A stretch of 64,000 nucleotides of DNA from Pseudonocardia sp. (GTDB lineage: Bacteria; Actinomycetota; Actinomycetes; Mycobacteriales; Pseudonocardiaceae), in NCBI RefSeq assembly GCF_050250275.1, contig NZ_JBFWOY010000020.1, forward strand, positions 11,155-75,154, in the 5' to 3' direction. The first letter of the stretch is position 1; each line of letters opens with the position of its first letter. The position numbers were made by a program, and so were the translations under genes. Shown one piece after another: positions 30,631-54,449 of the stretch. The notes beneath the pieces were generated by a model. The model worked only from the letters and a program-made list of their open reading frames with translations. It was not told where the DNA came from and made no database searches.

Positions 30631-32370
30631 TCACCGACCGCTCGACCAGGCCGCCCACAGCGCGGCGTACCGCCCGCCCGCGGCCAGTAACTCCGCATGG
30701 CTGCCGAGCTCGACGACCTTGCCGCCGTCGAGGAGCAGCACGGCGTCGGCGTCGGCCGCCTGGGTGAGCCGGTGGGCTACCACGAGCGCGGTTCGTCCGC
30801 CCAGCGCCCGCTGCGCCGCGGACTCCAGGACGCGTGCGCCGGCGCTGCCCGCCTCGGCGGTGGCCTCGTCGAGGATCGCGACCGGTGGATCGGCCAGGAC
30901 GAGCCGGGCGAGAGCCAGCTGCTGGGCCTGCACGGCGGTCAACGCCGAGCCGCCCGCGCCCACCACGGTCTGCACGCCGTCGGGGAGGGCGTCGACCCAG
31001 TCGAGCGCACCGACCCGGTCCAGAGCCGCCCGCAGCTGCGCGGCACCCGCGTCCGGGTCGGCCAGGCGCAGGTCGTCGGCCAGCGGGCCGGCGAACACGT
31101 GCACCTCCTGGGTGACCAGCGCGACGGCCCCGCGGAGCGCGCCGTCGGGCGGTGGCGGGTCCAGCCGGAGCGTGCCACGGTCGGGCTGGTGCACCCCGGC
31201 GACCAGCTTGGCCAGCGTCGTCTTGCCCGCACCGCTGGCGCCGACGACGGCGAGCCGGGCGCCGGCGGCGATGTCCACGTCGACACCGGTGAGCACGTCC
31301 GGCCCGTCGCGATAGCCGAAGGCCACCGCCTCGACCTGGACGCGGGCCGGTGCCGCACCGCGCACCGGCGCCGGATGATCCTGCTCCGGCAGGTCGGCGG
31401 TCCCGACGATGCGCGCCAGACCGGCGGCCGCGGCCTGCACGGTCTGCAGCAGGAACAGCACCTCGTTCAGCGGTCCGAACAGGCCGATGAAGTAGAGCGC
31501 GGCGGCGCTGGCCGTCCCGATCGACACCGTCCCGGAGCGGACCAGCAGGAACCCGACGACCAGCACGAGGGCGAGGCCGACGAACTCGGCCAGGTTGAGC
31601 CGCCCGAAGAACCCGTTCTGCAGGCGGACCACCCGCAGCGCGAGGTCGACGACCCGCTGCGAGCGCTGCCGGACCAGCTCGGTGTGCCGCCCGGCGAGCC
31701 GGAACGCCCGCACCGTCGCCACGCCGACCGTGCTGTCCAGCAGCTGCTGCTGCTGGGCACCGCCCGCGATGCGCTGCTCGGCGTAGAGGGGGGTGGCGCG
31801 ACGCAGGTACCACCGGGCGGTGAGCGCCTGGATCGGCACCGCGGCCAGCGCGGCCAGCAGGAACCGCCAGTCCAGGACGGCCAGCCCGACGAACGTCAGT
31901 ACGATGATCAGCCCGTAGCGGGCCAACGCCGGTACGCCCTCGCGGACCGCCTCGCCGACCTGGGCGACGTCCTCGGTCACCCGGGACCCGAGGTCGCCCG
32001 CGCCGGCCGCCTCGATCCGCTCCAGCGGCAGCCCGAGTGCGCGGTCGACGAGCCGTTCCCGCAGCCGGGCCAGCACGACCTCGCCGACCTGTGCGGTCTG
32101 GGCCACCCCGAGCGCGGCGAGCAGGCCCTGCACGACGGCGACACCGACCAGCCCGACGGCCGGCCAGGTCACCGCATCGGGCCCGCCGCCGTCGACGACC
32201 AGGTCGATGATGCGACCGAGCAGTGGCGCGACCAGCAGGCCTGCGGCGGCGCCGCCGGCCAGGGCCGTCACCGCGAGGACGGCGCGGGTCCGGTGCGGGC
32301 GCAGCAGCTCGCCCAGCATCCGACGGGTGCGGGTCGGGGTGGCGACCGGCAGCAGTTCGCGGTCGGTCAC
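30631..32370 (-). CDS. ABC half-transporter (exporter fold), catalytically competent NBD with degenerate signature motif
   Basis: 579 aa from GTG 32370 (GTGA overlap with the upstream gene). Walker A is GASGAGKTT, the Q-loop is VTQE, Walker B is ILDEAT and the H-loop is VAHRL. The signature position reads LTAVQ instead of LSGGQ. Confidence 0.9.
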   Translation of the reverse strand: MTDRELLPVATPTRTRRMLGELLRPHRTRAVLAVTALAGGAAAGLLVAPLLGRIIDLVVDGGGPDAVTWPAVGLVGVAVVQGLLAALGVAQTAQVGEVVLARLRERLVDRALGLPLERIEAAGAGDLGSRVTEDVAQVGEAVREGVPALARYGLIIVLTFVGLAVLDWRFLLAALAAVPIQALTARWYLRRATPLYAEQRIAGGAQQQQLLDSTVGVATVRAFRLAGRHTELVRQRSQRVVDLALRVVRLQNGFFGRLNLAEFVGLALVLVVGFLLVRSGTVSIGTASAAALYFIGLFGPLNEVLFLLQTVQAAAAGLARIVGTADLPEQDHPAPVRGAAPARVQVEAVAFGYRDGPDVLTGVDVDIAAGARLAVVGASGAGKTTLAKLVAGVHQPDRGTLRLDPPPPDGALRGAVALVTQEVHVFAGPLADDLRLADPDAGAAQLRAALDRVGALDWVDALPDGVQTVVGAGGSALTAVQAQQLALARLVLADPPVAILDEATAEAGSAGARVLESAAQRALGGRTALVVAHRLTQAADADAVLLLDGGKVVELGSHAELLAAGGRYAALWAAWSSGR

Positions 32371-34055
32371 CCCAGCACCACGTCTCGGTAGCGGGCCCGG
32401 TCGGCCAGGAGCCGGTCGTGGCGGTCGAGCGCGGTGACGCGGCCGCCGTCCACGAGGGCCACCCGGTCGGCGACGGCCAGCAGAGCGGGGCTGCTGGTCA
32501 CCACCACGGTGGTCCGGCCGTGGCGCAGGGTGCGCAGTCCGGTGGCGATCTCGGCCTCGGTGACCGAGTCCACCGCTGTGGTCGGGTCGTGCAGCACCAG
32601 CACGGGTGGGTCCGCGGCGAGCGCCCGGGCGAGCGCCACCCGTTGGCGTTGCCCACCGGAGAGCGTCCGTCCACGTTCGGCGACGACGGTGTCGGCCCCG
32701 TCCGCGAGCGCGTCGACCACCTGGTCGGCCCGCGCGGCGGCCAGCGCCGGGGTGAGGTCGCGTTCGGCGGGGGCGGCGGCGCCGACGTTGGCGCGCACCG
32801 TGTCCGCGAACAGCTCCGCGTCGTGGGCCGCGACCAGCACCGCCTCGCGGGCGGACTCGGGTGCGTAGTCGGCCAGCGGTACCCCGTCGAGCCGTACCGA
32901 CCCGTGTTCGGGGTCCGCCTCGCGGGCGAGACAGCTCAGCAGGGCCAGTGCGTCGGCCGGGTCGGCTGCGACGATCCCGAGGAGCTCGCCCGCCCGGACG
33001 TCGAGGTCGAGCCCGGTCAGCGAGCCGTGGCGCAGGTCGGCCACGTGCAGGGCACCGTCGACCCGGGTGGGCGGCGGGGCGCTCCCGGCGCCGACCGCCG
33101 CCGGTGCGCCGAGCAGCTCGGCGATCCGCCGTGCCGACGCCCTGGCCTGCGCGAACCGTTCGTTGACCCAGCCCAGCTCCTGCAGCGGGTCGACGAGGAA
33201 CTGGGCCAGCCCGACGGCGGCCACGAGCTGCCCGGTGCTGATCTGGTCCGCGGCCGCCAGCCGGCCACCGACCAGCGCGATCACGGCGAGGAACGTGCCG
33301 TTGACGATGAGCACGGTCCCGGAGAACCAGGCCTGGCTGCGGGTGGCCCGCAGGGTGGCCGCCAGCGAGTCGGCGCTGGTCCGGGCGTAGCGGCGGACCG
33401 CGGCGGGCTCTGCCCGCAGGCCTTTGAGCACCCGGATGCCCGCGACCAGGTCGGTGGCGGTGCCCGCGGCCTGCGCGGCCCGTTCCTGCTCGGCCTCGCT
33501 GCGCCGCTCGATGGGCCGGCCGAACAGGTGGATCAGGTAGAGCACCGGTGGCGTGCCCAGCAGGATGAGCAGCCCGAGCGGCACCGAGATCCGCAGCAGT
33601 GCCACCGCGGCGACCAGCAGCGCGGCGAGGGCCGCCAGCCCGAGCGGCAGCCCGAAGTTGATCAGACCGACGCGTTTGGTGTCGGAGGTGGCGATCGAGA
33701 CGAGCTCGCCCGGCAGGCGGCCCCTCTCGGCGCCGCCGGCCGGGGCGAGCAGGCGGCGGGCGATGAGCAGCCGCAGACGCTGGTCGGCGCACACGTCCGC
33801 GATCCAGGCCTGCCGGGCGCCGAGCCGGTAGCAGACGGACAGGAAGGCGAAGTCCAGGCCGAGCACGGCCAGCCAACCGAGCAACGCCGCCGGGTCCCCG
33901 GTCCGCAGGGCGGTGTCGATCACCACCCCGACCAGCACCGGGACCAGCACCTCGCCGATCTGGTGGCCGCCGAAGCAGAGGGTGGCGAGCCCGACCCGGC
34001 CCCGGAAGGCGCCGATCGACCCGGTCAGGACCGACCGGCCGGAGGACGCGGTCAT
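32367..34055 (-). CDS. ABC half-transporter (exporter fold) with degenerate Walker A, Walker B and H-loop but canonical LSGGQ
   Basis: 562 aa from ATG 34055 (ATGA overlap with the NRPS stop). The Walker A position reads [15 protein letters not shown] with no GK[ST]. The signature is LSGGQRQR, the Walker B position is VLVLHDPT, and the H-loop position is VVTSSP. Confidence 0.9.
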
Positions 34056-37000
34056 GTGAGGCCACCTTCCGTGCGGTCGTCCTGTCCGGGGCTGCCCGGT
34101 CCGGCGACCGCGCGGACGATGCCGCGCAACGCCTCGAACCACAGCTCGGCCAGGCTCGGCACCTCACCGGCGGCGAAGACCGCCGCCGGCCATTCCCAGG
34201 AAGCGTGCAGCTCGGGCCGCCCGTCGACGTCGACCGCGAGCACGTCGAGCACCAGCGGATGCCCGGCCGGCATGGCGTCGTCCCGACCGCCCGTCAGCGG
34301 GTCCAGCCCCGCCGGCGTCTGCCAGTCGCCCCCGTCCCCGGCGCCCTCCGCGTAGCGCCCGAGGTAGTTGAACTGCAGCTCGGGCTCGGCTGCGCCGGCG
34401 AGCTGGGGGCCGGCCTGGGGGTCGAGGTGGCGCAGCACGCCGTAGCCCAGCCCGCCGTCGGCGACGGCGCAGAGCTGCTCGCCGACCCCACCGACGATCC
34501 GGCGCACCTCGTGGGGGTCGGCGGCCAGCACGGCGGACCACGCGGTGGGCCCGACCGGCAGGTACACCGGGAAGGCCGTGGTGAACCAGCCGACGGTCCG
34601 GGTGAGGTCGACGTCTCCGACGTGCTCCTCCCGGCCGTGCCCCTCCAGGGCGACCAGCGTGCCGTCGCCGGGGAGGCGCCCGGTGCGGCGGCGCCACTCG
34701 GCGGCGGCGACCGCCAACGCGGCGAGCAGGACGTCGTTGACCGTGGCACGCAGGAGGGCCGGGACGGACGACAGCAGTGGTGTCGTCCAGTCGGCCGGCA
34801 GCACCAGGGAGTGCTCCCGGATGGTCGTGGCGGTGTCGCGACCCGGGTCGAGGGGGGTGCGGGCGAACCGGCCGGCCGCCGCCTGCGCGGTGGCCCGCCA
34901 GTGCGGCAGCTCCCCGGCCCGGGCACCGGTGCGTCCGGCGTCGGCCAGCCCGCGGGCCCAGGTGCGGAACGACGTCCCGACGTCGGGCAGGGCGATCGGC
35001 TCGCCCGCGCGGTGGCGGGCCCACGCCTCGGCGAGGTCCTCGGTGAGGATCCGCCACGACACCCCGTCGACGACCAGGTGGTGCGCGACGAGCAGCAGGA
35101 TCCCCGGGGCGGCCGGTCCGGCGTCGAGCAGCACCGCCTGCGCCATGACCCCGCGGTCGGGGTCGAGGCGGGCGGCGGCCTGCAGCCGCTGCTCCTCGAC
35201 GACGGTCCCGACGTCGGTGCCGGCCGGCAGGTCGGCCACCGACAGCAGGTCGCCGGCCCGGACGGTGCCCGGCTCGGGGACCTCCAGCTCCCAGCGTGCC
35301 GTCTCGCGGTGCAGCCGGGCGCGCAGCAGGTCGTGGTGGTCGAGCAGGGCCTGCAGGACGGGCAGGAGCGCCGGGGCGTCCACCCCGGCCGGGGTCTGCA
35401 GGGTCACCGCCTGGTGGAAGGCGCCGATCGAGCCGCCCGCCGCCGCGGTCGACCCGGCGAGCCATCCCATGATCGGGGTGGCGGGCAACCGGCCCGTCCC
35501 GGCGCCGTCCACGTCCACCCGAGCCGCGGTCGCCGGACCGGAACCCAGCGCGGCCAGGGCCTCGACGGTGCGTGCCGTGCGCACGTCCCGCGGCCGCAGC
35601 ACCAACCCGTGCCGGCGGGCCTGCGACACCAGCGCGATCGAGCTGATGCTGTCGCCGCCGAGTGCGAAGAAGTCGTCGTCGATGCCGACGTCCGGCACCC
35701 CGAGCAGCCGCCCGATCAGGTTGCACAGGCTCCGCTCGGCCTCGGAGCGCGGCGCGCGGTGCTCCCGCGTCCCGGTGAGCTCCGGAGCCGGCAACGCTGC
35801 GGCGTCGAGCTTGCCGTTGACGGTCAGCGGCAGCTCGTCCAGCACGTCGAGGGTGGTGGGGACCATGTGTGGCGGTAGCTGCTCGGCGAGGTGCGTGCGC
35901 ACCGCGGCGACCAGCGCCGCCGGGTCGGCGGGCCCGGCCGCGACCAGGTAGCCGGCCAGGTGGGCGATCCGGGCCTCCCCCCGCCGGTGCACCGTCACCG
36001 CCGCCTGGGCCACCCCGGGGTGGCGTTCCAGGGTGGCGACGATCTCGCCCGGCTCCACCCGGTAGCCCCGGATCTTGACCTGGTCGTCGGTGCGGCCGAG
36101 GAAGTCGATGTTCCCGTCGGCCCGCGCGACGACGAGGTCGCCGGTGCGGTACATGCGCCCGCCCGCGGCGGCGCCGTACGGGTCGGCGACGAACCGCTCC
36201 GCCGTCGGCCCCGGGCGGTCGTGGTAGCCGCGCGCCAACCCGGCGCCGGCGATGTAGAGCTCACCGGGCGTACCGGGCGGGACGGGGCGCAGCGCGCTGT
36301 CGAGGATGTAGGCGCGGGTGTTGGTGACCGGTGTGCCGACCGTCGGTGTCACGCTGTCCTCGGTGCCGCCACCCAGGGTGTTGATCGTGTACTCGGTGGG
36401 GCCGTAGAGGTTGTAGCCGACCACCCCCTCCGCGGCGGCCAGCTGCGTCCACACCGACTCGGTGACCGCCTCCCCGCCGAGCAGGACCAGCGGCGGTCGG
36501 TGCGGGCCGTCGAGCAGGCCGCTGTCGAGCAGTGTCCGCGCGTAGGTGGGCGTCACGTTGACGACGTCGATGCGCTGCTCGGCGCAGTAGGCGACGAGCT
36601 GCTGGGCGTCGCGGCGCAGCTCCTCGTCGCACACGTGCACCTCGTGGCCCTCGACGAGCCAGAGCAGCTCCTCCCACGACATGTCGAAGGAGAACGACAC
36701 GGTGTGCGCGATCCGCAGCCGGCGGCCCCCGGCCCGGTCCAGGGTCGGGCCGAAGATCTTCGCCTGGTGGTTCACCAGCATGTTCGTCAGCCCCCGGTAC
36801 GGGGTGAGCACGCCCTTGGGGAGCCCCGTGGAGCCGGAGGTGTAGATCAGGTACGCGGGGTGCTCCAGCCGCCCCGGCGTACCGGGCGCGAACGGGCCGA
36901 GCTCGGCGGGGGTGAGCGCGGCCGGTGACTGCCGCGCGAGCTCCGCGGCGGTCTCCCCGCCGTGCAGCCCCACCACCGGTGCGCCCACCTCGGCGGGCAG

Positions 37001-40000
37001 CCGCTCCGCGCCGGGCCTGTCGGCCAGCACGCACACCGGCCGGGCGTCGGCGAGCATCACGGCCCACCGGTCGGCCGGGTGGTCGAGGTCCAGCGGCAGG
37101 TAGGCCGCGCCGGTGCGCAGCACCGCGAACAGCGCCACCACCGTGTCCAGCGACCGCGCCATCGCCAGCGCGACGGTGCGCTCCGGCCCGGCACCGCGCG
37201 CCAGCAGCAGCCTGGCCAGCCGGTTCACCCGGGCGTCGAGCTCGGAGAAGGTCAGCTGCTCGCCGTCGCACACCAGCGCCACGGTGTCGGGTCGCGCCGC
37301 GGCGCGCTGCGCGAGCAGCTCGGCGACCGTCGCCGGGGGCACCGGGTGGCCGGTGGCGGCCCAGCCCTGTTCGAGCGCGGCCCGCTCCGCCGGGGCGAGC
37401 AGCTGCAGCCGGGCCATCGGCCGGTCGGTGTCCGCGGCCAGTTCGTGCAGGACCGACAGGAACGCCTCGTACAGCCGCCGCGCCCGCTCGACCGGGACGC
37501 GTCGTTCGTCGTACTGCAGCCGCAGCGCGAGCTCCGCGCCGGGGAAGACCTGCAGGGACGCCGCGAAGTGGGTGCGCGCCTCGACCGACTCACCGGTGCC
37601 GGTGATCCGCAGCCCACCCGGCGCCCGCCCGTCCGCACCGGGCGGGAAGTTCTCGAACACGAACAGCACGTCGAACAGCTGTTCCACACCGGCCAGCGAC
37701 TGCACCTCGGCCAGCCCGAGGTACTGGTGCCCGAGCAGGTCGGCCTGCTCACGCTGGTGGGTGAGCAGCACGTCGCTGATGCAGTGCGTGGGTGACCAGC
37801 GCACCCGCACCGGCACGGTGTTGATGAACAACCCGACCTGGGAGTCGATGCCGGGGACGTCGGCGTCGCGGCCGGACACCACGGCACCGACGACGACGTC
37901 GTCGCGTCCGGTGAGGGTGCCGAGTGCGATCGCCCACGCCCCGCTGACCAGGGTGTTCAACGTCAGCCCGCGGTGGCGTGCCGCTGCCCCCAGCATGCCG
38001 GTGAGCTCCGCCGGGACCGTCCCGGTCAGCGCCGCGGGGGCGGTGGGGGCGGCATCGGCGGGCAGGGCGGCGCCGAGCAGGGTGGGCTCGGTCAACCCCG
38101 CCAGCGCCGCCCGCCAGGCCGCCCGGGTCCGGCCGGTGTCCTGACGCGACAGCCAGCCCAGGTACTCCCGGTAGGACGGCACCGGCAGTGGGTCCCGGCC
38201 GTCGCCGCGGGCCTCGATCAGGTCGAGGAGGTCGTCGAACAGGACGGGCAGCGACCAGCCGTCGGCCACCAGGTGGTGCAGGGTGACGACCACCCGGTGC
38301 GCGGCGTCCGGCTGCTCGGGCCGGTCGCCGGTGAGCAGGGCGACCCGCAGCAGCGGCGCCTCGTCGAGCGCGAAGGCGTGCCGTCGTTCCTCCCGCGCGG
38401 CGCGGGCGGTGGTGGCGTCGTCGGCCGGGTGCAGCACGCGCAGCGGGACCTCGACCGTGCGGGCCACGGCCTGGACGAGCCCGCCGTCGAGGGTCTCGTG
38501 GAACGAGGCGCGCAGCGCGGGATGGCGGGCGGTGAGCGCGGCGAGCCCGGCGCGCAGCTGCTCACCGGTCAGCGGGCCGGCCAGCTCCAGGACGTACTGC
38601 ACGATGTAGCCGTCGGGGTCGGCGTCGCTGTGCAGGTGGTAGCGGGAGTGGAAGTACATCCCCTGCTGCAGCGGCGTCAGCGGCCACACGTCGGCCAGGC
38701 CGCCGGTGACCGTCGCGGCGAGCGCGTCGACGTCGGGCTGGGCCAGGGTCACGAGCGGGAAGTCGGCGGGTGACGGGCCCCAGCCGCCGGGCGCCGGGGC
38801 GTGCTCGGCGAGGGCCGCCAGCGCGGCCGCCCAGCGCTGCGCGATCGCGGTCACGTCGGCCTCGGCGAGCACCCCGTCGGGCCAGGCGAACGTGGCTGAC
38901 AGGGACGGGCCCGCGGCACCGTCGGTCACCGCGGCGTTGATCTCCAGCGGGTAGCCTGCCGCGGTGTCCGGGTCGGCCCGTTCGCCCAGCGCCGGGCGTT
39001 CCGGGGCGAGGCCCCAGTCCTGGCCGTCGGGGTGCTCGCCGGTGCCGAACCGGCCGAGGTAGTTGAACAGGACGGACGGGGTGGCGGTACCGGCCCAGGC
39101 CTGCGCCCGGTCCGGGTGCAGGTGGCGCAGCACCGTGTAGCCGATCCCGCGGTCGCGGCGTGCTTCGATCGCGGTCCGGACCCGCTTCGCGGCCGCCGCC
39201 ATCGCGTGGCCGCCGTCGAGGAACTCCGCCCACGCCACGGGCCCCGGGTCGAGCCGGACCGGGGCGATGGTGGTGAACCAGCCCACGGTCCGGGACAGGT
39301 CGAGGGTCTCGTCGACCGCGGCGCCCTCCCGGCCGTGGCCCTCCAGGTCGACCAGCACCGCGCCCTCGTCGCGGTCGCCGCGCAGGGCCACCGCGAGCGC
39401 GGTGAGCAGGACGTCGTTGACGGTGCCGCCGAACGCGGCCGGGACCGCGCCGAGCAGCCGCCGGGTGACCGCGGCGGGCACCGCCACGGTCGACGACCGG
39501 GTGGTGCCGACCGTGTCGCGGGCCGGGTCCAGCGCCCGGTCCCCGACCGGGCACACGTTTCGCGGGTCCAGCTCGTCGCGCCAGCGGGGTAGCTCGGCCA
39601 GCCGCTCGTCGCGACCCGCCTCCCGGTGCAGCGCCTCGGTCCAGTCGCGGAACGAGGTGGGCACCGGCTCCGCGGCGAGCCGACGGCCGTCCTGGTGCTG
39701 CTGCCACAGCTGCGCCAGGTCCTCGCCGACGATGCGCCAGGACACGCCGTCGACCACGATGTGGTGGGCGACGAGCAGCAGCCGGCCGCGCCGGGTCGGC
39801 CCGGCGTCGACGAACACGGCCTGCACCATCACCCCGCGGTCGGGGTCGAGCCGGCCGACCGCCTCGTCCTCGCACGCGTCGAGCAATGCGGCGAGCGCGG
39901 CCGGGTCGTCGGGCGCGGGGACGGTCCGCAGCAGGTCCGCGGCCGCGACGGTGCCGGGCTCGGGAACGTGCAGTGCCCAGTCGTCGGCCCGGTCCAGCCG

Positions 40001-43000
40001 GGCCCTGAGCAGGTCGTGCCGGTCGAGCAGGGCCTGCAGCAGGGCGACCTGCGCGGCCGTGTCGGCGCCGACCGGGGTCTGCACGCACAGTGACTGGAAG
40101 AACCCGTTGATGCCGACCGCCTCGTCGCGCAGCCCGGCGAGGATCGGGATCGGGGGAACGCGCCCCACCCCCGACCCGGGTTCGTGCCGGGCCGCCGGGG
40201 CGGTCGCGGCGGCGAGGGCGAGCGCCTCGGGGGTGCGGCGCTCGAACACCAGCCGCGGGCTGATCGCGATGCCGAGCCGGCGGGCCTGGCCCACCAGCCC
40301 GATGGAGACGATGCTGTCGCCGCCGAGCTCGAAGAAGTCGTCGTCGACACCCACGTCGCCGACGCCCAGCAGCTCCTCGAACAGCCCGCACAGCACCCGC
40401 TCGGGGTCGGTGCGCGGGGCGCGGCGCCGACGGCTCGACGCGAACGTCGGCTCCGGCAGCGCGGTCGTGTCGAGCTTGCCGTTGACGGTCAGCGGCAGCT
40501 CGGGGACCTCGACGAGCGCGGCCGGGACCATGTGGGCGGGCAGGCGCTCGGTCAGCTCGGCCCGCACGGCGGCGACCAGCGCGTCGGCCGGGGTCCCCGG
40601 GACCGCCGGCACCAGGTAGCCGACGAGCCGTTTGCGCCCGGACGGGCGATGGGTGTGCGCGATCACCGCGGCGTGGGCCACCTGCTCCAGCGACTCCATA
40701 GCGGCGGCGATCTCCCCGGGCTCGACCCGGAACCCGCGGATCTTGACCTGGTCGTCGGTACGGCCCAGGAAGTCGACGTTCCCGTCCGGACGCAGGCGGA
40801 CCAGGTCACCGGTGCGGTACATGCGCCGCCCCGGCCCGGCGGCGAACGGGTCGGCGACGAACCGTTCCGCGGTGAGCGCGGCCCGCCGGTGGTAGCCGCG
40901 GGCCAGCCCGGCGCCGGCGATGTACAGCTCGCCGGGGCAGCCGACCGGGACCGGGCGCAAGGAGGTGTCGAGCACGTAGCCGCGGGTGTTGTGGATGGGC
41001 TTGCCGACGGTGGGGGTGGCGCTGTCGGCGGTTCCCCCGCCCAGGGTGTTGATCGTGTACTCGGTGGGGCCGTACAGGTTGTAGCCGGTGACGCCGTGGG
41101 CGTCGCGCAGCGCGGACCACACCGTGTCGGTGACGGCCTCGCCGCCCAGCAGCACCAGCGACGGCCGGTGCGGGCCGTCGAGCAGCCCCTCCTCCAGCAG
41201 CGCGTGCGCGAACGTGGGTGTCACGTTGACGACGTCGATGCGCTGGTCGCGGCAGTAGGCCACCAGCTTGTGGGCGTCGCGGCGCAGCTCCTCGTCGCAC
41301 ACGTGCACCTCGTGGCCCTCGACGAGCCAGAGCAGCTCCTCCCACGACATGTCGAAGGAGAACGACACGGTGTGCGCGATCCGCAGCCGGCGCCCGCCCG
41401 CGGCGCCCACCACGGGGTCGAAGATCTCGGCACGGTGGTTGGCCAGCATGTTGGTCAGCCCCCGGTACGGGGTGAGCACGCCCTTGGGCAGGCCGGTGGA
41501 GCCGGAGGTGTAGATCAGGTAGGCGGGGTGCTCGAGCCGGGCGGGGTCGGCGGCGGCGAAGCCGGGGCGCTCCGCGTCGCCGAGCGGGCCCGCCGGGAAC
41601 GCGGCCAGCTCGGCGACCACCGCCGGGTCGTCGAGTGCCGAGATCGGGACGTCGGCGGGCAGCAGAGCGGCGGCGTCGGCCGTGGTGAGGACGCACACCG
41701 GGTCGGCGTCGGCGACCATCACGGCGAGGCGCTGCGCCGGGTACTCCAGGTCCAGCGGGAGGTAGGCGGCGCCGGTGCGCAGCGTCGCGAACAGTGCGGC
41801 GACCATGTCCGTGCCGCGCGGCAGGGCGAGCCCGACGACGCGTTCGGGGCCCGCGCCGCGGGCCAGCAGCAGCCGGGCCAGCCGGTCGACCCGCTCGTCG
41901 AACTCGGTGAACGAGAGCTGCTGCGACCCGCAGACGAGGGCGGTGTCCGCGGCGTGCGCCGCGGCGGTCGCGGCGAGCGTCTCGGCCACCGACTCCGTGC
42001 CCAGCGGGCGGGTGGTGGCCGACCAGTCCCGCTGCAGGTGCGCCCGCTCCTGGTGCCCGAGCAGGTCGAGCCGGCCGAGTGGGCGGTCCGGGTCGGCGAC
42101 GAGCGCCGCGGCGACGTCGGCCGTGCGCCGCAGCAGCGCCGTCGCCTCGGCGGCGCTCACGGCGACGTGGTGTTCGAGGGTCAGGCCCAGCTCGTCGCCG
42201 GGGGTCGCGATCATCACCAGCGGGTAGTGGGTGGCGTCGACGTGGCGGCGGCCGACGACCCCGGCGGCGTCGAGGGCCCGCTGCGGGATGTCGGCGAAGT
42301 TCTGCAGCACGAACAGGGTGTCGAACAGCACCGGCTGCCCTGCCGCGCGTTGGATGGCACCGAGCCCGAGGAACTCGTGCTCGCTCAGGGCGAGCCGCTC
42401 GTTCTGCAGCCGGCGCAGGAACGCGCCCACGGCTTCGGCGGGGTCGGTGCGCACCCGCGTCGGCACGGTGTTCAGGAACTGGCCGACGACGTGCGCGGCC
42501 CCGGGCAGCTCCGGTGGCCGCCCGGCGACGGTGGTGCCGAAGACCACCTCGTCGCGGCCGGTGAGGCCACCCAGCACGAGCGCCCACGCCGCGTTGAGCA
42601 CGGTGTTGAGGGTGACCCCGCAGCGCCGGGCGCCCGCGCGCACCGCCTCGGACCCCCCGGCGGGCACCGTGATCGCGGTCCGGGCGGGGATGGCTGCGGG
42701 GGCGGTGGTCCCGGCGCGCAGCGCCGGAGCGACCAGGGTGGGTTCCTCGATCCCGGCGAGGGCGCCGGCCCATGCCGCGCGCGCGGCGTCGCCGTCACGT
42801 TCGGCCAGCCAGCGCAGGTACTCGGGGTAGCCGCCCGCGGGTGGCAGCGCCTGCGCGCTGCCACCGCCGTAGAGGGTGAACAGCTGGTCGAACAGGGTGC
42901 TGTGCGACCAGCCGTCCCACGCCAGCAGGTGGTAGGTGACCACCAGCCGGTCGGTGCCGTCGGGCAGGCGCAGCAGCGACATCCGGAACAGTGGCGGCGC

Positions 43001-46000
43001 GGTGAGGTCGAACCGGCGGGTGCGGTCGGCGTGCGCGATGTCCCCGGCCCGCGCCGCGGCCTCGGCGGGGGCGAGGCCGGACAGGTCGTGCTCGGTCACC
43101 GGGTCGTCGGCGGCGGCCCGCACGACCTGGTGGACGGTGCCGTCACCGTTGTCGACGAACGCGCAGCGCAGCGTCGGGTGCCGCAGCTGCAGCAGCTGCG
43201 TCGCTGCGCGCAGGCGGGCCGCGTCGACGCGATGGTCCAGTTCGAAGGTGGTCTGCCCGGTGTAGACGTCGAGCGCCCCGGAGTCGTCGAAGACGGCCTG
43301 GAAGTACAGCCCGGACTGCAGCGGGGAGAGCGGCCAGACGTCGGTGAGGTCGGCGAACCGCTCCCGTAGCGAGCCGAGCGTGGTGAGGTCGAGCGGTACC
43401 AGTTCGAGCGGCGCGACCGGCGGCCGGGCCTGCTCGGGGGTGTCCTCGACGGTGGCGACGAGGGCGAGCGCCTCGGGGGTCCGGCTGGTGAAGACCTGCC
43501 GCGGGGTGAGGACCAGACCGCGTTCCCGGGCCCGGCCGACCAGGGTGACCGAGCTGATGCTGTCGCCGCCGAGAGCGAAGAAGTCGTCGCCGGCTCCGAC
43601 GTCGGTCGCGTCGAGCAGCTCGGCGAACAAGGCGCACAGCACCCGCTCGGGCCCGGTCCGCGGAGGGCGGCTGCCGCCGCCGGTGTAGACCGGCGCCGGG
43701 AGGGCCCGGACGTCCAGCTTGCCGTTCGTGGTCAACGGCAGCTCGTCGAGGGCGACGATCGAAGCGGGGACCATGTGGGCGGGCAGGTGCAGCGCCAGGT
43801 GGCTGCGGATCTCGGCGGCGGGGGCGCCGGCGCGCGGGTCGGCGGGAACCAGGTAGGCCGCCAACCGGGCGAGGGCCGGGCCCCCGCGCGACGACGTGCT
43901 GTCGACGACCACCGCGGCCTGCGCGACCAGGGGGTGCGCCTCCAGTGCGGCGACGATCTCACCCGGCTCGATCCGGTAGCCGCGGATCTTGACCTGGTCG
44001 TCGGTGCGGCCGAGGAAGTCGATGTTCCCGTCGGGGCGCCGTCGGGCCAGGTCGCCGGTCCGGTACATGCGTCCGCCCGGTTCGGTCGCGTAGGGGTCGG
44101 CGACGAACTTCTCGGCGGTCAGGCCGGCCCGGTCGTGGTAGCCGCGGGCCAACCCGGCGCCGGCCAGGTAGAGCTCGCCGGGCGAGCCGTCGAGCACGGG
44201 GCGCAGCGCGCTGTCGAGGATGTGGACCCGGGCGTTGTGCACCGGCCGCCCGACCGTCGGGGTGGTGCTGTCGCCGACACCGCCACCGAGCGCGTTGACG
44301 CTGAACTCGGTGGGCCCGTAGAGGTTGTAGCCGTCGGTGCGCGGCGCCTCGCGCAGCGCGGTCCAGACGGAGTCGGTCGCGGCCTCGCCACCGAGCAGCA
44401 CCAGCGACGGTACGTGCCCGCCGTCGAGCAGGCCGGCGTCGAGCAGGGCGCGGGCGTAGGTCGGTGTCACGTTGAGGACGTCGAGGCGCTGCGCGCGGCA
44501 GTGCTCGACGAGGCGGTGGGCGTCGCGGCGCAGCTGCTCGTCGCACAGGTGCAGCTCGTGCCCGTCGAGCAGCCAGAACAGCTCGTCCCAGGACATGTCG
44601 AAGGAGAACGACGTGGTGTGGGCGACCCGCAGCCGGCGGCCCCCGGTACCGGCGAGGGCGCGCGGGACGATCTCGGCGCGGTACTCGGCCAGCATGTTGG
44701 TCAGGCCGCAGTGCGGGGTGAGCACACCCTTGGGGGTGCCGGTGGAGCCGGACGTGTAGATCAGGTAGGCGGGGTGGTCCAGCCGGCCGGGTGAGCCGGC
44801 CGTGAACCCTGCCAGGTCCGTCGACGACGGCGGCCCGGGTGGCAGTGCGGCCAGCTCGGCGACGATCCCGGGGCTGTCGAGCCGGATCGTCGGCACGTCG
44901 AGGGCCGGCGCGTCGAGGTCGGGGCCGTCGGCGAGCGCCACGACGCAGACCGGCCGGGCGTCGCCGACCATCGCGGCCAGCCGCGCGGGCGGCAGCTCGA
45001 GGTCCAGGGGCAGGTACGCGGCGCCGGTGCGCAGCACGGCGAACAACGTCGCCACCATGTCGGTGGAGCGGGGCAGGGCCAGGGCGACGACGCGCTCCGG
45101 GCCCGCGCCGCGCGCCAGGAGCAGCCGGGCGAGGCGGTCGACCCGCGCGTCGAGCTCGGCGAAGGTCAGCCGGTCGTCGCCGCACACGAGGGCCGTGCCG
45201 TGCGGGGTGGCCGTGGCCAGCGTCGCGAGGTGCTCGGCCACCGTGCGGTCGGGCAGGTCGCGCTCGCTGGCCGACCACGCCGCGCGCAGCGCCACCGGTT
45301 CGTCGTCGGTCACCACGTCGACCCGCCCGACGGGCTCGGCGGGTGCCGCGAGCAGCCGTCGCGTCGTCGTCGCCAGGCGGTCCAGCAGCGCCGTCGCCGT
45401 CGCCCGGTCCAGGACGTCGGGCCGGAACTGCAGGGTGAACCGCATCCGCGACTCCGGTGCGACGACCAGCGCGAGCGGGTAGTGCGTCGCGTCGGCGTAG
45501 TCGACGTAGCGGGCGCCCACCGCGTCGAGCACAGCCGGGTCCAGCTTCGGGAAGTTCTGCAGCACGAACAGGGTGTCGAACAACGGCTGCTGCCCGGCGG
45601 CGCGCTGGATCTCGGCCAGCCCGGCGTGCTCGTGGTCGAGCAGGGCCGCCCGGTCACGCTGGATCCGCTGCAGCAGGGCGCTCACGGGCTCGGCGAGGTC
45701 GAGCCGCACGCGAGCCGGCACGGTGTTCAGGAACTGGCCGATCGACCGGTCGCTGCCCGCCAGCTCGGGCGGCCGCCCGGCCACCGTGGTGCCGAAGACC
45801 ACGTCGGTCCGCCCGGTCAGCCCGCCGAGGGTGATCGCCCAGGCGGCGTTGAGGACGGTGTTGACGGTGACGCCGAGGGCGCGGGCGCCGGCGCGGACGG
45901 CGTCGTCGGCCTCCGCGGGCAGCTCCAGTTCGACGGTCGAGGGCAGGACGGGCGCGTCCACGGGGGCGGCCTGCCGGGCGCCGGCGACGAGCGTGCCGCC

Positions 46001-48505
46001 GTCCAGCCCCGCCAGCGCGTGCCGCCACGCGGCCGCGTCGGCCCGGTGGTCGCGGCCGGCCAGCCAGCGCGGGTGGTCCAGGTGCGACGGCGGGGCGGGC
46101 AGTCCCGGATCGGTGCCGTCGTGGCCGAGCAGCGCGAAGAGTTCCCGCAGGACGATGTGGTGCGACCACCCGTCCCACGCGGTGAGGTGCTGGGTGAGCA
46201 CCAGCCGGGACCGGCCACCGGGCAGGTGGGCGACGGCGATGCGGAACAGCGGCGGCGCGGCGAGGTCGAAGCGGCGGCCGCGGTGGTCCGCGGCGAGGGT
46301 GGCCAGGCGCTCCAGCGCGTGGTCGAGGGGCAGGTCGGTGAGGGTGACCTCTTCGACGGGGACGGTGGCCGTCGGCAGCACGACCTGCACGGGCTGCGGA
46401 ACGCCGTCGGCGGTCAGCCCGGCGCGCAGGAACGGGTGGCGTTTCAGCAGCGTCGCGCACGCGCGGCCGAGCAGGTCGACGTCGAGTGGGGTGGCGAACT
46501 CGAAGTCGTGCTGTGCGGTGTAGGGGTCGACGTCGCCCGAGCCCTCGTAGACCGACTGGAAGTACAGCCCGGACTGCAGCGGCGCGGCCGGGAAGACCGC
46601 GTCCGTGCCGACGCCGTAGCGGGCCGCGGCCCGGGCCGCGACCTGCGGGTCGAGCAGCGGGGCCGCACCGCCGGAATCCCGGGTCGCCCGGTCCTCCGGT
46701 TGCGCGGCGGGGAACCGGGCGGCCAGCGCTTCGGCGGTGCGCAGCTCCATCAGCTCCCGCACCCGCACCCGCAGTCCGTCCTCGTGGGCGCCGCGGATCA
46801 CCCGGACCGCGGTGATGCTGTCGCCGCCGAGTGCGAAGAAGTCGTCCTCCGGGCCCACCTCGGGCAGGTCGAGGGCCTCGGCCAGCCGCCGGCACCAGCG
46901 GCGCTCGGCGTCGTCGCGGGCCGGCCGGCCACCGCCCGCCTCGAGCTGCGGCGCGGGCAGGGCGTCGCGGTCGAGCTTGCCGTTCGGCGTCATCGGGAGC
47001 CCGCCGGCGATCGGCACCAGCACGGTGGGGACCATGTGCGCCGGCAACGAGTCGGCCAGCCGGGCCCGCACGTCGGCCGGCGGGTCCGCCGACGCGTCGA
47101 GCACCACGTACCCGACCAGCATGCGGCGGCCCGGCTGGTCCTCGCGGACGACGACCGCGGCCTGGGTGACGCCGGGCTGCGCCAGCAGCGCGGTCTCGAT
47201 CTCACCCGGCTCGATCCGGTAGCCACGCAGTTTCACCTGCTGGTCCGCGCGCCCGAGGAAGTCGAGGGTCCCGTCGGCCCGCCACCGGACCCGGTCGCCG
47301 GTGCGGTACATCCGGGAGCCGTCGACCGCGAACGGGTCGGCCACGAACCGCGACGCGGTCAGCCCGGCGCGGCCGCGGTATCCCCTGGCCAGCCCCCGTC
47401 CCGCGATGTACAGCTCACCGACCTCACCCACCCCGACCGGACGCAGCCGCTCGTCGAGCACGAAGGCGTGCGTGTTGGGGTCGGGGCGGCCGATCGGGGC
47501 GGGCCCGCTCCACCCGGGCTCGGCCGTCCACAGGGTGGAGTTCACCGTCGCCTCGGTCAGCCCGTAGGCGGTCACCACCCGCAGGGGGCCGGTCCAGCGC
47601 CGCAGCACCTCCGGCGGCACCGTCTCGGTGCCGACGACCAGCACGGCGCCGTCGGGTAACCGGCTCTCCGGCGGCAGGGCCGCCACCAGCGAGGGCGGCA
47701 GGATCATGTGGGTGATCCCGTTGGCGCACAGGTAGTCGGTGAGCTCGGGGCCCGCGACGCGGCGGTGGGCCGGCACCAGGACGACGGTCCCGCCGACGCA
47801 CAGCGACATCGTCAGGTCCCAGACCGCGACGTCGAACCCGATCGAGGCGAACTGCGCGACCCTGCTCCGGGCGTCCACCCCCAGCCGGTCCACCGCGGTC
47901 GCGACGAGGCTGCCGATGCCCTCGTGCGTGAGCAGCGCGCCCTTGGGGCGACCGGTCGAGCCCGACGTGTAGATGAGGTAGGCGGCCCGGTCCAGGTCGA
48001 TCGGGCCACCCACCTCCGCATCGTCGAGGTCGGCACCCGATCGCCCGGCGAGCTCGGCCACCGTGGCGGCGGCGTCCACGCGCACCGCCGCCGTCGCGGA
48101 CGGCAGCTCGCCCGCCAGGTCGGTCGTGGTGAGGACCAGCCCGGCGCCGGAGTCGTCCAGCAGGTAGGCGACCCGCTCGGCCGGATGGTCCAGATCGACC
48201 GGCAGGAACACGGCTCCTGCCTTGAGCACCGCGAGCACCGCGACCACCAGCTCGGGCGAGCGGGGCAGGGCGAGGCCGACGACGTCCTCGGCCCCCACCC
48301 CACGCGCCCGGAGCAGGCGGGCCATCCGGTTGGCACGGTCGTTGAGCTCGTGGTAGCTCAACGACTCGTCCTCGCAGACGACAGCGGTCGCCGTGGGCCG
48401 TTCCGCGGCGCGGTTCTCGAACAGCCGTGACCACGGCAGTTCGTCGACCTCCCGCAGGGGACTGCGGGCCCACGGCGTCAGCTCGTCGATGCTCACTGCG
48501 GTCAC
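34052..48505 (-). CDS. non-ribosomal peptide synthetase, 4 modules: A-T / C-A-T / C-A-T-E / C-A-T-E (4817 aa)
   Basis: Four [14 protein letters not shown] adenylation cores and four [18 protein letters not shown] carrier motifs. Three C domains (active-site motifs at 46169-46189, 42911-42931, 38258-38278). Two E domains (HH[IL]VVDGVSW at 39737-39766 and 35054-35083, plus EGHGRE, RTVGWFT and FNYLG). GTG 48505 is in frame and overlaps the stop of the binding-protein gene (GTGA). The 252 upstream codons of ORF 34052..49261 are shadow sequence. Confidence 0.97.
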
Positions 48506-49530
48506 GGCTTGGCGTCCAGCTTCTCCAGCTCGGGAACGACCTGGTCGAGGGCGTAGGGGATGCTCAGCACGGTGTTGAAGGTGATCGCCGCACCCGGGAA
48601 CGGGGCCTGCGTGTAGTCGAAGTAGGACACGCGGCCGTTGCGGACGACGTCGAGCCGGTTGTAGATGGGGTCGTTCTGCAGGGTGGCCAGGAGGTCGGGG
48701 TCGGAGGTCCAGGCGAGGCGGTCGACGTCGAGCAGCGTGAACTCCTCGGCGCTGACGTTCGCGAGGTTGTCCTGTACGCGCGGGGCGAGCCACGGGGGCT
48801 GCGTCGAGAAGCCGAGGTCGGCGAAGAACCGGGCCTTGGGGTCCTGCGGCGAGAAGACCCCGTAGGTGCCCGCCTCGGCCGTCGCCATCACGAGCATGGT
48901 CTTCGTGGCCCACTGCGGGTGAGCCGTGCGGACAGCGGCGAGCTTCTGCTCCACGCCTGCCACCAGGTCCTTGGCCTGCGCCTCGCGGCCGAGCGCGCGG
49001 CCGATCGTCACCGTCGTCTCCTGCCAGGGGGCACCGAAGGCGTCGTAGGCGCCCGGGTGGGCGACGGTGGGGGCGATCGCCGACAGCTTGTCGTACTCGG
49101 AGCGGTCCAGGCCCTCGTACAGGGCGAGGATCAGGTCCGGACGCAGGGCGGCGACCTTCTCGAAGCTGATCTCGCCGGCGTTCGCGACGATCTCGGGGGT
49201 CGCCCCCTTCGCGGCCGCGGTCGCCCACGGGAAGATCGCGCCCGGCTGCTCGTCGAACCATTCCGTCGTGCCGACCGGCTGGACACCGAGGGCGAGGACG
49301 GCGTCCTGGTCGCTCCAGCCGATGGTGACCACGCGCTGCGGCGAGGTGGCGATGGTGGTGGAGCCGAGGGCGTGGTCGATGGTCACCGGGAAGCCGGGAC
49401 CGGCCGGCGGGGCCGACGGGGACGAGGCGGGCGACTGCGCTGTGCCGCAGCCGGCGAGGGCCACGGCGAGCGCCGCTGCGAGCGGCAGCAGCGTCCGTCG
49501 TCGAAGTGTTCGGGGCATGCGGATACTCAC
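48502..49530 (-). CDS. siderophore/iron-complex ABC substrate-binding lipoprotein (FecB/FhuD-like, cluster A)
   Basis: Signal peptide with lipobox [25 protein letters not shown] and [12 protein letters not shown] are typical of iron-siderophore binding proteins. GAGGAG lies 7 nt upstream of GTG 49530; ATG 49518 is the alternative. Confidence 0.9.
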
Positions 49531-49586
49531 GGTTGTGCTCCTCGGAGGTCGATCAGGGACGTTCTTGGGCGCTGAAGCGCCCGGGA

Positions 49587-49814
49587 TCAGCGGGTCGGCG
49601 CGGCCGGCTCGGAGCGCTGCCGCAGGCTGCGGGGGCGCAGGTCGTCCCAGTGTTCGTCGATGTGGTCCAGGCACTCCTGGCGGCCGGCTGCGGACAGGAC
49701 CACGCGCCAGCCCTCGGGGACCGCCGCGAACGCGGGCCACAGCGAGTACTGCTCCTCGTCGTTGACCAGTACGTGGAAGGTGCCGTCCGGGTCGTCGAAC
49801 GGGTTGGTGGACAT
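49587..49814 (-). CDS. MbtH-like protein
   Basis: [39 protein letters not shown]...[20 protein letters not shown] is the canonical MbtH signature (NxExQxSxWP...GW). Confidence 0.95.
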
Positions 49815-49842
49815 CCGTGTCTCGCCTTCTGTCGTGGGTGGG

Positions 49843-51108
49843 TCAGACCAGGGCCGAGCTGCGCTCGGCGATCGACTGCACGATCTCCCCACTACGCACG
49901 GCGATGTTCGACAGCAGCGTCGACGACAGTCCATGGGTGTGTTCGGTCGCGCCCTGGACGTAGATTCCCGCGCGCAACGCCTCGTCGGTGGCCACCCGGT
50001 AGTCGCGGTTGATGCTCAGGCGGCCGGTGTCGTCGCGCAGGCAGGATCCGGTGAGGTCGCCGAGGAGGGCGCACGGGTCGGAGGGCCGGTATCCGGTCGC
50101 ATAGACCACGAGGTCGGCTCTGACGGCTTCGCGCCCACCGTCGAGCATCGACTCGAGGACCAGTTCGACGTGGTCGCGGCCGGCCACCACGTCACCGATG
50201 CGGCTGACGTTGAGGAACCGCAGCCGTTCGCGCCCGCTGATCTTCTCGTGGTAATGGCGGCGGTAGAGGGACTCGATGAGCTCGGGGTCGACGACCGAGT
50301 AGTTGGTGTTGGCGTGGTAGCCGAGAATCATCTGTTTGACTTCGGGGGGTGCTCCGAAGAAGTCGTCGACGGCGCCCGGGTCGAACACGCGGTTGGCGAA
50401 CGGTGTGTCGTCGGCGGGGCTGTAGCCGTAGCGGTTGAAGACGGCCCACACCTCAGCGGACTCGAACCTGCGGTGGAAGTGGTCCACCGCCTCGGCTGCG
50501 CTCTGCCCGGCGCCGACGACGATCACGCGACGCGGGTCGATCGGCTGGTCGGTGCGGGTGAGGAGGTCGCGCGTGTGCCAGATCCGCTCTCCCGGGACCA
50601 CCCCGTCGGGCAGGTTCGCGGTGAGCCCGGTGGCGACCACGACGTTACGGGTGCGCATCGTCGTCCCGCCCGACGTCCTGACGTCGAGGAACTCGGGTGC
50701 GTCGGGTACCGGATCGATCGAGGTCACGGTCGTGCGGTAGTCGACGTCGTCGGCGAATCGCCCGGCGACCCATTCCAGGTAGTCGTGGAACTCCAGACGT
50801 GTCGGGAACGCGCTCCCGTAGTTGATGAAGTCGATCAGCCGGCCCCGGTCGTGGAGGTAGGACAGGAAGCCGTACGGGCTGACGGGGTTGCGCAGGGTGG
50901 CGAGGTCCTTGAGGAAACTGATCTGCATCGTCGCGTCTTCGAGCAACATGCCGCGGTGCCATCCGAACGTGGGCTGCCGTTCCACGAACCGGGTACTCAA
51001 CCCCGCGCCAGGGGTGCTGCTGTTGTGTTCGGCGACGGCGACGGCGAGCGCCAGGTTCGATGGTCCGAAACCGACGCCGACCAGGTCGAACGACCCACAT
51101 CGAGACAT
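49843..51108 (-). CDS. L-ornithine/L-lysine N-monooxygenase (SidA/IucD/PvdA family)
   Basis: [16 protein letters not shown] (FAD GxGxxN variant), [23 protein letters not shown] (NADPH) and DLVVYATGY. Confidence 0.93.
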
Positions 51109-51132
51109 GCACGCGCTCCCTTTGGGTGAGGA

Positions 51133-51151
51133 CTAGGCTACCTTTGCCTAA
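51133..51151. promoter_or_regulatory. IdeR/DmdR-type iron box candidate
   Basis: ctaggctacctttgcctaa; the reverse complement TTAGGCAAAGGTAGCCTAG matches 13/19 positions of the remembered consensus TTAGGTTAGGCTAACCTAA, with both outer TTAGG/CCTAA arms preserved. It is centred in the AT-richer 66-bp gap between the divergent N-monooxygenase and SIP genes. Confidence 0.5.
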
Positions 51152-51174
51152 GGGAAGGCTTACTTCAATAGCCC

Positions 51175-51873
51175 GTGTGGGCGGACACACAGCGGAGTCG
51201 TTTCGGCCCCGCGCGGTCAGGAACGGGCGGTCTCCGTACGGTGCGGCGCGTCGAGGGTGACCGGGTGACCGTCGACGTCGTCGTCCACGAGGGTGGCGCC
51301 GCGACGGCGTGGGCGCGCCGCGGCCGGCCGGGCGACCGGCTCGCGGTGACCCACCAGAACAGCTGGTTCACCCGGCCCGACGGGGTCGGCTGGCAGGTGC
51401 TGCTCGTCGACACCACCGGCCTGCCCGCGGCGGCGCGCATCGCGGAGGAGGCGCCCGCGGGGATGCGGACGATCGTCGTCGCGGAGGTCCCGTCGACCGC
51501 GGACGAGCAGGAGCTGGCCGGGGCCGAGGTCACGTGGGTGCACAACCGCCAGGTCGTGCACGGGGGGTCGCGGCTCGAGCGCCTGGCCCGGGAGCTGGTG
51601 CTGCCCGAGGGGCCCGGGTACGTCTACGTCGCGGGTGAGGCGGCGGCGACCCGTGCCGTCCGCACGTACCTGCGTCGTGAGCTGCGGTTGCCCGCGGAGT
51701 CGTACGGGGTGATCGGCTACTGGCGCCGTGACGCGGTCGCGTGGGCGGAGCGGGTGGCGCGGTCGGACGTCGATCTCGGCGAGTTGTGGCGGCGCTCCGA
51801 GGCCGAGGCGGCCGACGGGCAGGAGGCCCTGGACCTGTACGAGGAGCGGTTGGGGGGCGTCGGCCTGCTGTGA
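51175..51873 (+). CDS. siderophore-interacting protein (ferric-siderophore reductase family), apparently lacking the N-terminal part of the FAD-binding barrel
   Basis: LRTVRRVEGDRVTVDVVVHEGGAATAWARRGRPGDRLAV resembles RxYTxR...H..GPAs.WA...pGD, and the NAD-binding half is VLLVDTTGLPAAARI...VYVAGEAAATRAVR. Only about 20 residues precede the RxYT-like motif, versus roughly 70-90 in the SIPs I remember. Confidence 0.7.
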   Translation: MWADTQRSRFGPARSGTGGLRTVRRVEGDRVTVDVVVHEGGAATAWARRGRPGDRLAVTHQNSWFTRPDGVGWQVLLVDTTGLPAAARIAEEAPAGMRTIVVAEVPSTADEQELAGAEVTWVHNRQVVHGGSRLERLARELVLPEGPGYVYVAGEAAATRAVRTYLRRELRLPAESYGVIGYWRRDAVAWAERVARSDVDLGELWRRSEAEAADGQEALDLYEERLGGVGLL

Positions 51874-51923
51874 AGAAATCTTCTGGTTGCGTATCTGCGT
51901 GAGTGCGCATATAGAGTGAGTGG

Positions 51924-53819: not shown

Positions 53820-53832
53820 CGGGTACGGGGGC

Positions 53833-54417: not shown

Positions 54418-54433
54418 CGGTGCAGCGTAGTCG

Positions 54434-54449
54434 GTTAACGTCCGCTAAC
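54434..54449. promoter_or_regulatory. GTTAA-N6-CTAAC palindromic box upstream of the TetR gene
   Basis: gttaacgtccgctaac lies 17 nt upstream of ATG 54417 (minus strand). It is the same 16-mer family as the two boxes at 57224-57257. Confidence 0.6.

Follow-up and report, generated by a model that had tools for sequence, protein, structure and literature searches.

Condensation domains lacking the second histidine accompany internal hydroxyornithine modules and may form backbone hydroxamates in a Pseudonocardia siderophore synthetase

Condensation (C) domains of non-ribosomal peptide synthetases (NRPSs) usually count as uniform amide formers that rely on the second His in their HHxxxDG core motif, a residue whose role is still debated. 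What, then, do C domains do that carry a Leu at this place? The question is raised by a 64,000-nucleotide stretch of DNA from Pseudonocardia sp. (contig NZ_JBFWOY010000020.1, positions 11,155 to 75,154; G+C content 74%), which we analysed over its full length and refer to as the window. On the minus strand, where all features of the gene lie, the window encodes an NRPS of 4817 aa (34052..48505), for which the open reading frame (ORF), Pfam matches and the domain map give the order A1-T-C2*-A2-T-C3*-A3-T-E3-C4-A4-T-E4 without a thioesterase (TE) domain (A, adenylation; T, thiolation; E, epimerisation; an asterisk marks a C domain without the second His). Both of its E domains are canonical (HHIVVDG and HHLVVDG). 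Among its three C domains, C2* (45287..46597) was found by translation to read HLTAWDG in its core motif (46169..46189) and C3* (42032..43339) to read HLLAWDG (42911..42931), whereas C4 (37367..38689) has the canonical HHLVADG (38258..38278). When all C-like domains were aligned with phmmer against C3, C4 and E3, the three motifs stood in register without gaps, and the alignment to the solved C domain of PvdL gave the same ungapped register, so that the Leu of both domains falls into the column of the second His, just as the original prediction had it. The domain map likewise bears out its statement that C4 follows an E domain, namely E3, while C2 (in A1-T-C2) and C3 (in A2-T-C3) have none upstream. 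We propose, with a probability of a little over three in four and by analogy with characterised assembly lines, that C2* and C3* are members of a dedicated subtype, monophyletic and derived from DCL domains, that would acylate the N5-hydroxyamino group of N5-hydroxyornithine (hOrn) and thereby form backbone hydroxamates.

Domains that lack a residue commonly called catalytic could simply be degenerate, and it had been suggested from the motifs that the substitution is selected rather than decayed. Although the second His is missing, both domains fall into PF00668 (Condensation), with a full-length match of the protein segment (positions 3-455 of 456, E = 2e-116) in the order T-C-A. Neither is an E domain in disguise: the E-type motif HHxxxDGxSW is absent, the context being DGWS and not DGVSW, and both score best against C queries. 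Using three metagenome relatives (L042, L046 and L043) for comparison, we obtained dN/dS values of 0.29, 0.44 and 0.50 for C2 and of 0.36, 0.31 and 0.36 for C3, next to 0.36, 0.33 and 0.36 for the canonical C4 and 0.28-0.46 for both E domains. Together with P0083 from Pseudonocardia yuanmonensis, which is 57% identical to the NRPS of the window, these relatives make up the four orthologues found, and all four keep its module order. Their motifs read [QF]HL[TL]AWDG and YHLLAWDG at the variant sites and [LI]HHLV[AT]DG at C4. C2 and C3 are thus under purifying selection equal to that on canonical domains, at values (0.29-0.50) that do not show the relaxed selection of an inactive or X-type C-like domain, and the substitution is not decay.

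To place the two domains among their relatives, we searched 1.84 billion representative sequences with C3 using HMMER, which retrieved 150 large NRPSs, and parsed every C, A and E domain in them. A neighbour-joining tree built from 662 C domains gathered every one of the 29 domains that lack the second His and face an acceptor module with an A domain code of the DME type in one clade of 36 members, which also holds C2 and C3. The other seven comprise five records that end before any A domain, P0194, in which no downstream A domain was recognised, and P0140; two clade members, P0140 and the truncated P0001, had been mis-scored through an alignment gap. With the exception of P0194, all members whose record reaches the next domain precede an A domain of the DMENLGLINK type, which we take to be the N5-hydroxyornithine code of CchH module 3. 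The sister of the clade is P0176, a domain with a DME acceptor and a tail of TE size in which the motif is the canonical HHILWDG.

The clade is nested among DCL-like domains, which have the motif HHxxLDGWSxPL and follow E domains, and among solved structures the C domain of PvdL that follows an E domain (PDB 9up2/9lcp) matches best (E = 6e-59). Both results, together with the C1-type N-terminus of C2 and C3, agree with their earlier description as DCL-like, even though neither of the two has the upstream E domain expected of this class. Across the clade, 15 members have an E domain upstream and 13 a plain A-T unit, which indicates that the group has lost a strict tie to D-configured donors. 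Its signature extends well beyond the missing His. The residue at position 2 of the motif is hydrophobic (L, V, F, M, A or T), the fifth position is usually Trp, the motif's D, G, W and S show 100% conservation, and seven residues upstream an Asp replaces the His found in most relatives. C3 bears the clade residue at all specific positions listed (numbering of the long ORF, background residue in brackets): D2104 (His), L2112 (His), W2115 (Leu), R2289 (Gln), L2263 in the C5 motif and L2319-Q2320 (Phe-Glu). Trp at the fifth motif position was considered as a diagnostic by itself and rejected, as HHxxWDG occurs with unrelated acceptors and some hOrn domains without the second His have no Trp. Another class, in which the second His is likewise missing from the C domain and the motif reads H-Q-[ML]-x-x-D-G-W-S, was seen in P0108, P0128, P0141 and P0159. 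Where known, its upstream element is an E or E-like domain, its acceptor codes include DVEE[IL]G..., DLTKVGHVG and DARGLGHVNK, and it may represent another functional subtype that looks unrelated to the clade described here.

We then asked how tightly the loss of the second His is linked to the acceptor. In the window, the A domain downstream of each variant domain carries a code of the form DM[ED]NLGL[IV]NK, namely DMDNLGLVNK after C2 and DMENLGLINK after C3. Among the 524 C domains of the survey that have a recognised downstream A domain, 30 lack the second His and face a DME or DMD acceptor, 10 lack it and face another acceptor, four are HH domains with a DME acceptor and 480 are neither (Fisher p = 6e-36, kinship ignored). 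Nine of the 10 cases with another acceptor belong to the H-Q class (once as M-Q), and the remaining one reads H-M. The expected co-occurrence of the variant with DME-type A domains is therefore real and nearly exclusive. As a sole rule, the idea that variant domains are those serving hOrn acceptors describes C2 and C3 correctly and fails at C4, the acceptor of which is the terminal hOrn, selected by an A domain that also has the code DMENLGLINK. This indicates that the variant tracks the internal hOrn module and not the hOrn acceptor as such.

The counts follow this distinction closely. In the sample collected with C3, all 28 internal DME modules have a C domain without the second His, and all four DME modules with a canonical C domain are terminal. 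One apparent canonical internal domain, P0140, was rejected as an alignment-gap artefact, its real motif being H-H-L-V-L-W-D-G with Leu in place of the second His. A contig scan with highly specific 8-mers, seeded with a variant domain from Kitasatospora, returned mostly Kitasatospora, and the Kitasatospora loci gave nine internal DME modules with variant domains and 10 terminal ones with canonical C domains. Since the first sample had been picked by way of the C domain, a second, independent sample was seeded with A3 and drawn from metagenome contigs. Here, 33 of 33 internal DME modules have variant domains (with HL, HF or HV motifs, SELILLDG or YWFGCFDG), while 13 of the 14 DME modules with a canonical C domain are terminal (ending in T-TE, T-stop or T-E-stop); the locus of the fourteenth ends inside its A domain, and the variant domains scored as terminal in this sample mostly stem from ORFs that end with the locus. 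C2 and C3, which serve modules 2 and 3 of four, conform to the same pattern. Since the same DMENLGLINK A domain is also found with canonical C domains, though only in terminal modules, the variant is not forced by the A domain. Two extreme forms turned up among these loci: S-E-L-I-L-L-D-G, in which both His are gone, before DMENLGLINK A domains in L055 and L059, and Y-W-F-G-C-F-D-G-G-S before a DMENLGLINK A domain in a stand-alone C-A-T protein in L078 and L082.

Where the connectivity of a product is known, the position of the variant domain can be compared with the bond made. In qinichelin, an HMBC (heteronuclear multiple bond correlation) signal from H2-5 of hOrn5 to C-1 of Ser4 places the linkage on the delta-hydroxylamine, hOrn5 is alpha-linked to the cyclised hOrn6 (N-alpha of chOrn6), and the authors attribute the isopeptide bond to C domain 5 of QchJ and suggest that the N5-hydroxyamine releases the product by its attack, without a TE (10.1101/163170). 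S213L-type synthetases from about 25 Kitasatospora species have the order ...Orn-Ser(E) | C-A(Orn)-T-C-A(hOrn)-T-C-A(hOrn)-T, module 5 invariably carrying N-H-A-L-L-W-D-G and module 6 F-H-H-I-A-G-D-E; the motif of QchJ itself, from Streptomyces sp. MBT76, is presumed from these Kitasatospora homologues of the same architecture. Like C2* and C3*, module 5 of QchJ works on a carrier-bound hOrn acceptor and, as proposed for the window, a canonical C domain comes next, makes an alpha-amide to a terminal hOrn and is followed by cyclisation off a TE-less line. The two differ in that qinichelin has one such bond after a catechol-peptide, whereas the line in the window would make two such bonds in a row, begins from a free amino acid and has an E domain at its end.

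The exochelin-like synthetases, which we found in Mycolicibacterium cosmeticum, M. anyangense, Gordonia, Williamsia, Nonomuraea and many metagenome contigs, give a second comparison. Their order is A(DINYWGGIGK)-T-E, C-A(beta-Ala-like)-T, C*-A(DME)-T-E, C-A(Thr)-T-E, C*-A(DME)-T, corresponding to hfOrn, beta-Ala, hOrn, Thr and hOrn, and the C domains without the second His (HFLLWDG or HFLL[LF]DG) stand exactly at modules 3 and 5. Sharman et al. reportedly showed in 1995 that exochelin MS contains hydroxamate links from beta-Ala to N5 of hOrn and from allo-Thr to N5 of hOrn. The exochelin MS synthetases FxbB/FxbC of Mycolicibacterium smegmatis differ from the line in the window in their donors, which are beta-Ala and D-allo-Thr, and in drawing the third hydroxamate from formyltransferase-derived hfOrn. 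In M. anyangense, the exochelin-like NRPS adjoins genes for an aspartate decarboxylase and an ornithine monooxygenase; in the record AP022620.1 (L041, first 21 kb), this NRPS lies at the very start of the chromosome, beside panD and a split ornithine monooxygenase, and is called as many short genes, frameshifts or sequencing errors being the probable cause. Four-module synthetases of the erythrochelin type have the variant C domain at module 3, and residue 3 of erythrochelin reportedly forms a diketopiperazine with residue 4, which would require a free alpha-amine and hence a delta-linked Ser. The original prediction that C2 and C3 use the N5-hydroxy amine and form backbone hydroxamates is accordingly supported by comparison, through the module positions in exochelin-like and qinichelin/S213L-like synthetases, through the internal-module rule and through the lack of an acyl- or formyltransferase in the cluster.

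Two structurally characterised C domains help to delimit the subtype. The post-E domain of PvdL shares with C2* and C3* the Pfam fold match, the C1-type N-terminus and the DGWS context, but it follows an E domain, retains the second His (HHILIDAW) and differs at about a dozen clade-specific positions. C3 of fuscachelin FscG (HHxxxDE, PDB 7KVW) is, like the domains in the window, a natural acceptor-tuned variant and illustrates that the motif is adaptable; unlike them, it keeps both His (H2697 is essential), changes the Gly and is tied to small acceptors, not to side-chain nucleophiles. HHxxxDE motifs were also encountered in our own samples: C domains that use an N5-acylated hOrn module as their donor almost always read HH[IV][AT]TDEWS, unless an E domain intervenes (for example in P0138, P0158, L044, L045 and L072). 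This is a tendency only, HHxxxDE being found after other modules as well, and such domains may be suited to donors whose alpha-amine is free.

How could a C domain dispense with the second His? In canonical domains, this residue is thought to position or deprotonate the alpha-amine of the acceptor. An N-alkylhydroxylamine, on the other hand, is an alpha-effect nucleophile and, at physiological pH, mostly unprotonated, so that a His for positioning or deprotonation would be unnecessary. In our model, a C domain without the second His would move the upstream acyl or aminoacyl thioester onto the N5-hydroxyamino group of the carrier-bound hOrn and not onto its alpha-amine, which would remain free while one backbone hydroxamate is made per condensation, and the hydrophobic surface formed by Leu and Trp would disfavour a charged alpha-ammonium group at the reaction centre. 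The model may also account for the internal/terminal rule. An hOrn thioester with a free N5-OH is expected to cyclise to a six-membered hydroxamate; acylation of N5 in internal modules would block this premature release, which would explain why every internal hOrn module has a variant C domain, and the same cyclisation on a terminal, alpha-linked hOrn would serve as the release step.

Applied to the window, the model predicts the following line. After loading of a first residue X1 by A1 (46892..48385), C2* would make X1-CO-N5(OH)-Orn2 with the residue selected by A2 (43628..45193), a hOrn-type domain with Asp at position 239, and C3* would make Orn2-CO-N5(OH)-Orn3 with the residue of A3 (40382..41941, also hOrn type), which E3 (38852..40201) would epimerise. 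Canonical C4 would then form an ordinary amide to the alpha-amine of hOrn4, selected by A4 (35717..37279, DMENLGLINK), and the free N5-hydroxyamine of this residue would attack its own thioester to release a C-terminal cyclic hydroxamate in the absence of a TE. The predicted product is X1-CO-N5(OH)Orn2-CO-N5(OH)-D-Orn3-CO-NH-cyclo-hOrn4 with free alpha-amines, and its three hydroxamates would suffice for hexadentate Fe(III) binding without an acyltransferase, formyltransferase or TE. Release probably does occur by self-cyclisation of the terminal hOrn; the line ends in the E-type domain E4 (34163..35527), after which a tail of 36 aa follows. An E-type terminus of the assembly line is common to the orthologues P0083, L042, L043 and L046. 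The Asp for Glu exchange at position 239 of A2 is preserved as DMDNLGL[VI]NK in the full-length orthologues P0083, L042 and L046, while L043 reads DMDDMGLIN-, and the variant might reflect a slightly different substrate or the context of module 2.

The identity of X1 bears on the number of hydroxamates. A1 has the code DVWIVGAVNK and a YGLTE rather than YGPTE core. The same code occurs in loading modules of erythrochelin-like four-module NRPSs, the last module of which recurrently shows the related code DVFILGAVNK. A1 may select N5-acyl-N5-hydroxyornithine, in which case the product would contain four hydroxamates instead of three and a remotely encoded acyltransferase would be required.

The gene neighbourhood is that of a siderophore locus. 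According to the gene calls of a contig of the metagenome-assembled genome (MAG) GCA_050178875.1, which is 100% identical to positions 46843-54108 of the window, the NRPS starts at a GTG at 48505; the mechanical ORF (34052-49261, 5069 aa) overshoots this start by 252 codons and crosses, in a different frame, the genes for an MbtH-like protein and a substrate-binding protein. The same record places a periplasmic substrate-binding protein (Peripla_BP_2; 48502..49530, minus strand), likely a siderophore receptor, directly upstream, followed by the MbtH-like protein (49587..49814, minus) and, with Pfam support, an L-ornithine/lysine N-monooxygenase (49843..51108, minus) as the producer of N5-hydroxyornithine. 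Divergent from the latter lies a gene for a siderophore-interacting (ferric reductase) protein (51172..51873, plus), and two ABC transporters, both permease-ATPase fusions, are encoded downstream of the NRPS (32367..34142 and 30631..32370, both minus). Pfam scans of the other confidently called ORFs in the 64 kb window revealed no N-acyltransferase, formyltransferase or thioesterase. The cluster is flanked on one side by a P-type (E1-E2) ATPase and a TetR regulator (51915-53819 and 53833-54444) and on the opposite side by an ArsR regulator and PEP carboxylase (27306-30407).

Several points weigh against N5-acylation by C2 and C3 and have to be set against the evidence above. The exact clade received a bootstrap value of 29/50, and its Trp is not universal (HTLLTDG in L025, HVLLMEG in L028 and L065). 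C and A domains may have been inherited together, in which case the clade-wide association comprises fewer independent events than the raw counts imply. The second His has been reported to be dispensable in some canonical C domains. The acetyltransferase of erythrochelin biosynthesis, eryM, is encoded far from its cluster, and with such remote acyltransferases in mind, the absence of one from the window is weak evidence. A product with four hydroxamates, as expected if A1 activates N5-acyl-hydroxyornithine, would be unusual. Finally, the tie to proven connectivities runs through architectural homologues of QchJ, FxbC, CchH and EtcD.

Some of these points could be combined into a conservative explanation, in which C2 and C3 make ordinary alpha-amides, the His-to-Leu exchange is a lineage-specific and compensated change inherited as a C-A unit, and the N5-OH groups are acylated in trans by an enzyme with a gene elsewhere in the genome. 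A second His that is not essential in every C domain, C and A domains that co-evolve so that the association reflects few independent events, and the remote erythrochelin acetyltransferase gene would all fit. We nevertheless consider this explanation unlikely, because canonical C domains accompany the same DMENLGLINK A domain in terminal modules only, and because in the qinichelin/S213L architecture it is the variant domain that coincides with the NMR-proven delta-link and the canonical one that coincides with the alpha-link. Moreover, an hOrn thioester that is acylated on its alpha-amine and retains a free N5-OH would be expected to cyclise off the line, and no transferase was found in the window.

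The comparative data would fit any reaction at the N5-OH group, including acylation of the N-hydroxy oxygen to give an O-acyl hydroxylamine ester that is either kept or rearranged from O to N to yield the hydroxamate, and O-acyl hydroxamate esters do occur in nature, as in mirubactin. Iron binding, however, needs the N-acyl hydroxamate and the HMBC correlation in qinichelin is consistent with N-acylation, which makes an O-acylating domain quite improbable. That C2 and C3 are inactive, skipped or purely structural, with a shorter product or other catalysts in their place, is a thought that the missing catalytic residue invites, and exchange of the second His for Gln (H2697Q) in C3 of FscG leaves about 1% of activity, which indicates that its loss is not trivially tolerated. 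Dead domains would hardly be expected, though, to show the dN/dS values of canonical C4 and a full-length Pfam match, to keep the D, G, W and S of the motif at 100% across the clade, to have an invariant motif in about 25 Kitasatospora species and to be present in many genera, and the idea would render every internal hOrn module in two samples dead; we regard it as exceedingly improbable. N5-acylation by C2* and C3* is the reading that we retain.

Formation of hydroxamate or isopeptide bonds by C domains has been stated for individual pathways (10.1101/163170) and is listed generically in a 2024 review. In the literature searched, from which most subscription journals fall outside coverage, we found no description of the clade without the second His, of its signature or of the internal/terminal rule. 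On balance, we think that the clade comprises mechanistically distinct, His-independent catalysts, that its signature predicts the linkage and that the window encodes an undescribed tris-hydroxamate siderophore. If this is true, a large, conserved clade that lacks the second His and redirects acylation to a side-chain hydroxylamine would constitute a natural experiment on the mechanism of C domains, and a simple rule for genome mining would follow: a variant C domain in an internal hOrn module would signify a hydroxamate in the backbone and an alpha-amine left free, and a canonical C domain with hOrn would signify a terminal, alpha-linked and self-cyclising residue. Current tools for structure prediction draw hydroxyornithine as alpha-linked; the rule would correct them and, for hundreds of siderophore clusters in actinobacteria, alter the predicted connectivity, the charge (through free alpha-amines) and the count of iron ligands, and the variant domains would offer an engineering handle for backbone hydroxamates. 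For the Pseudonocardia locus itself, it would mean a product in which two backbone hydroxamates follow one another and a cyclic hydroxamate forms the terminus. No tailoring acyltransferase or thioesterase would take part, and the route to the tris-hydroxamate would be compact and tailoring-free.

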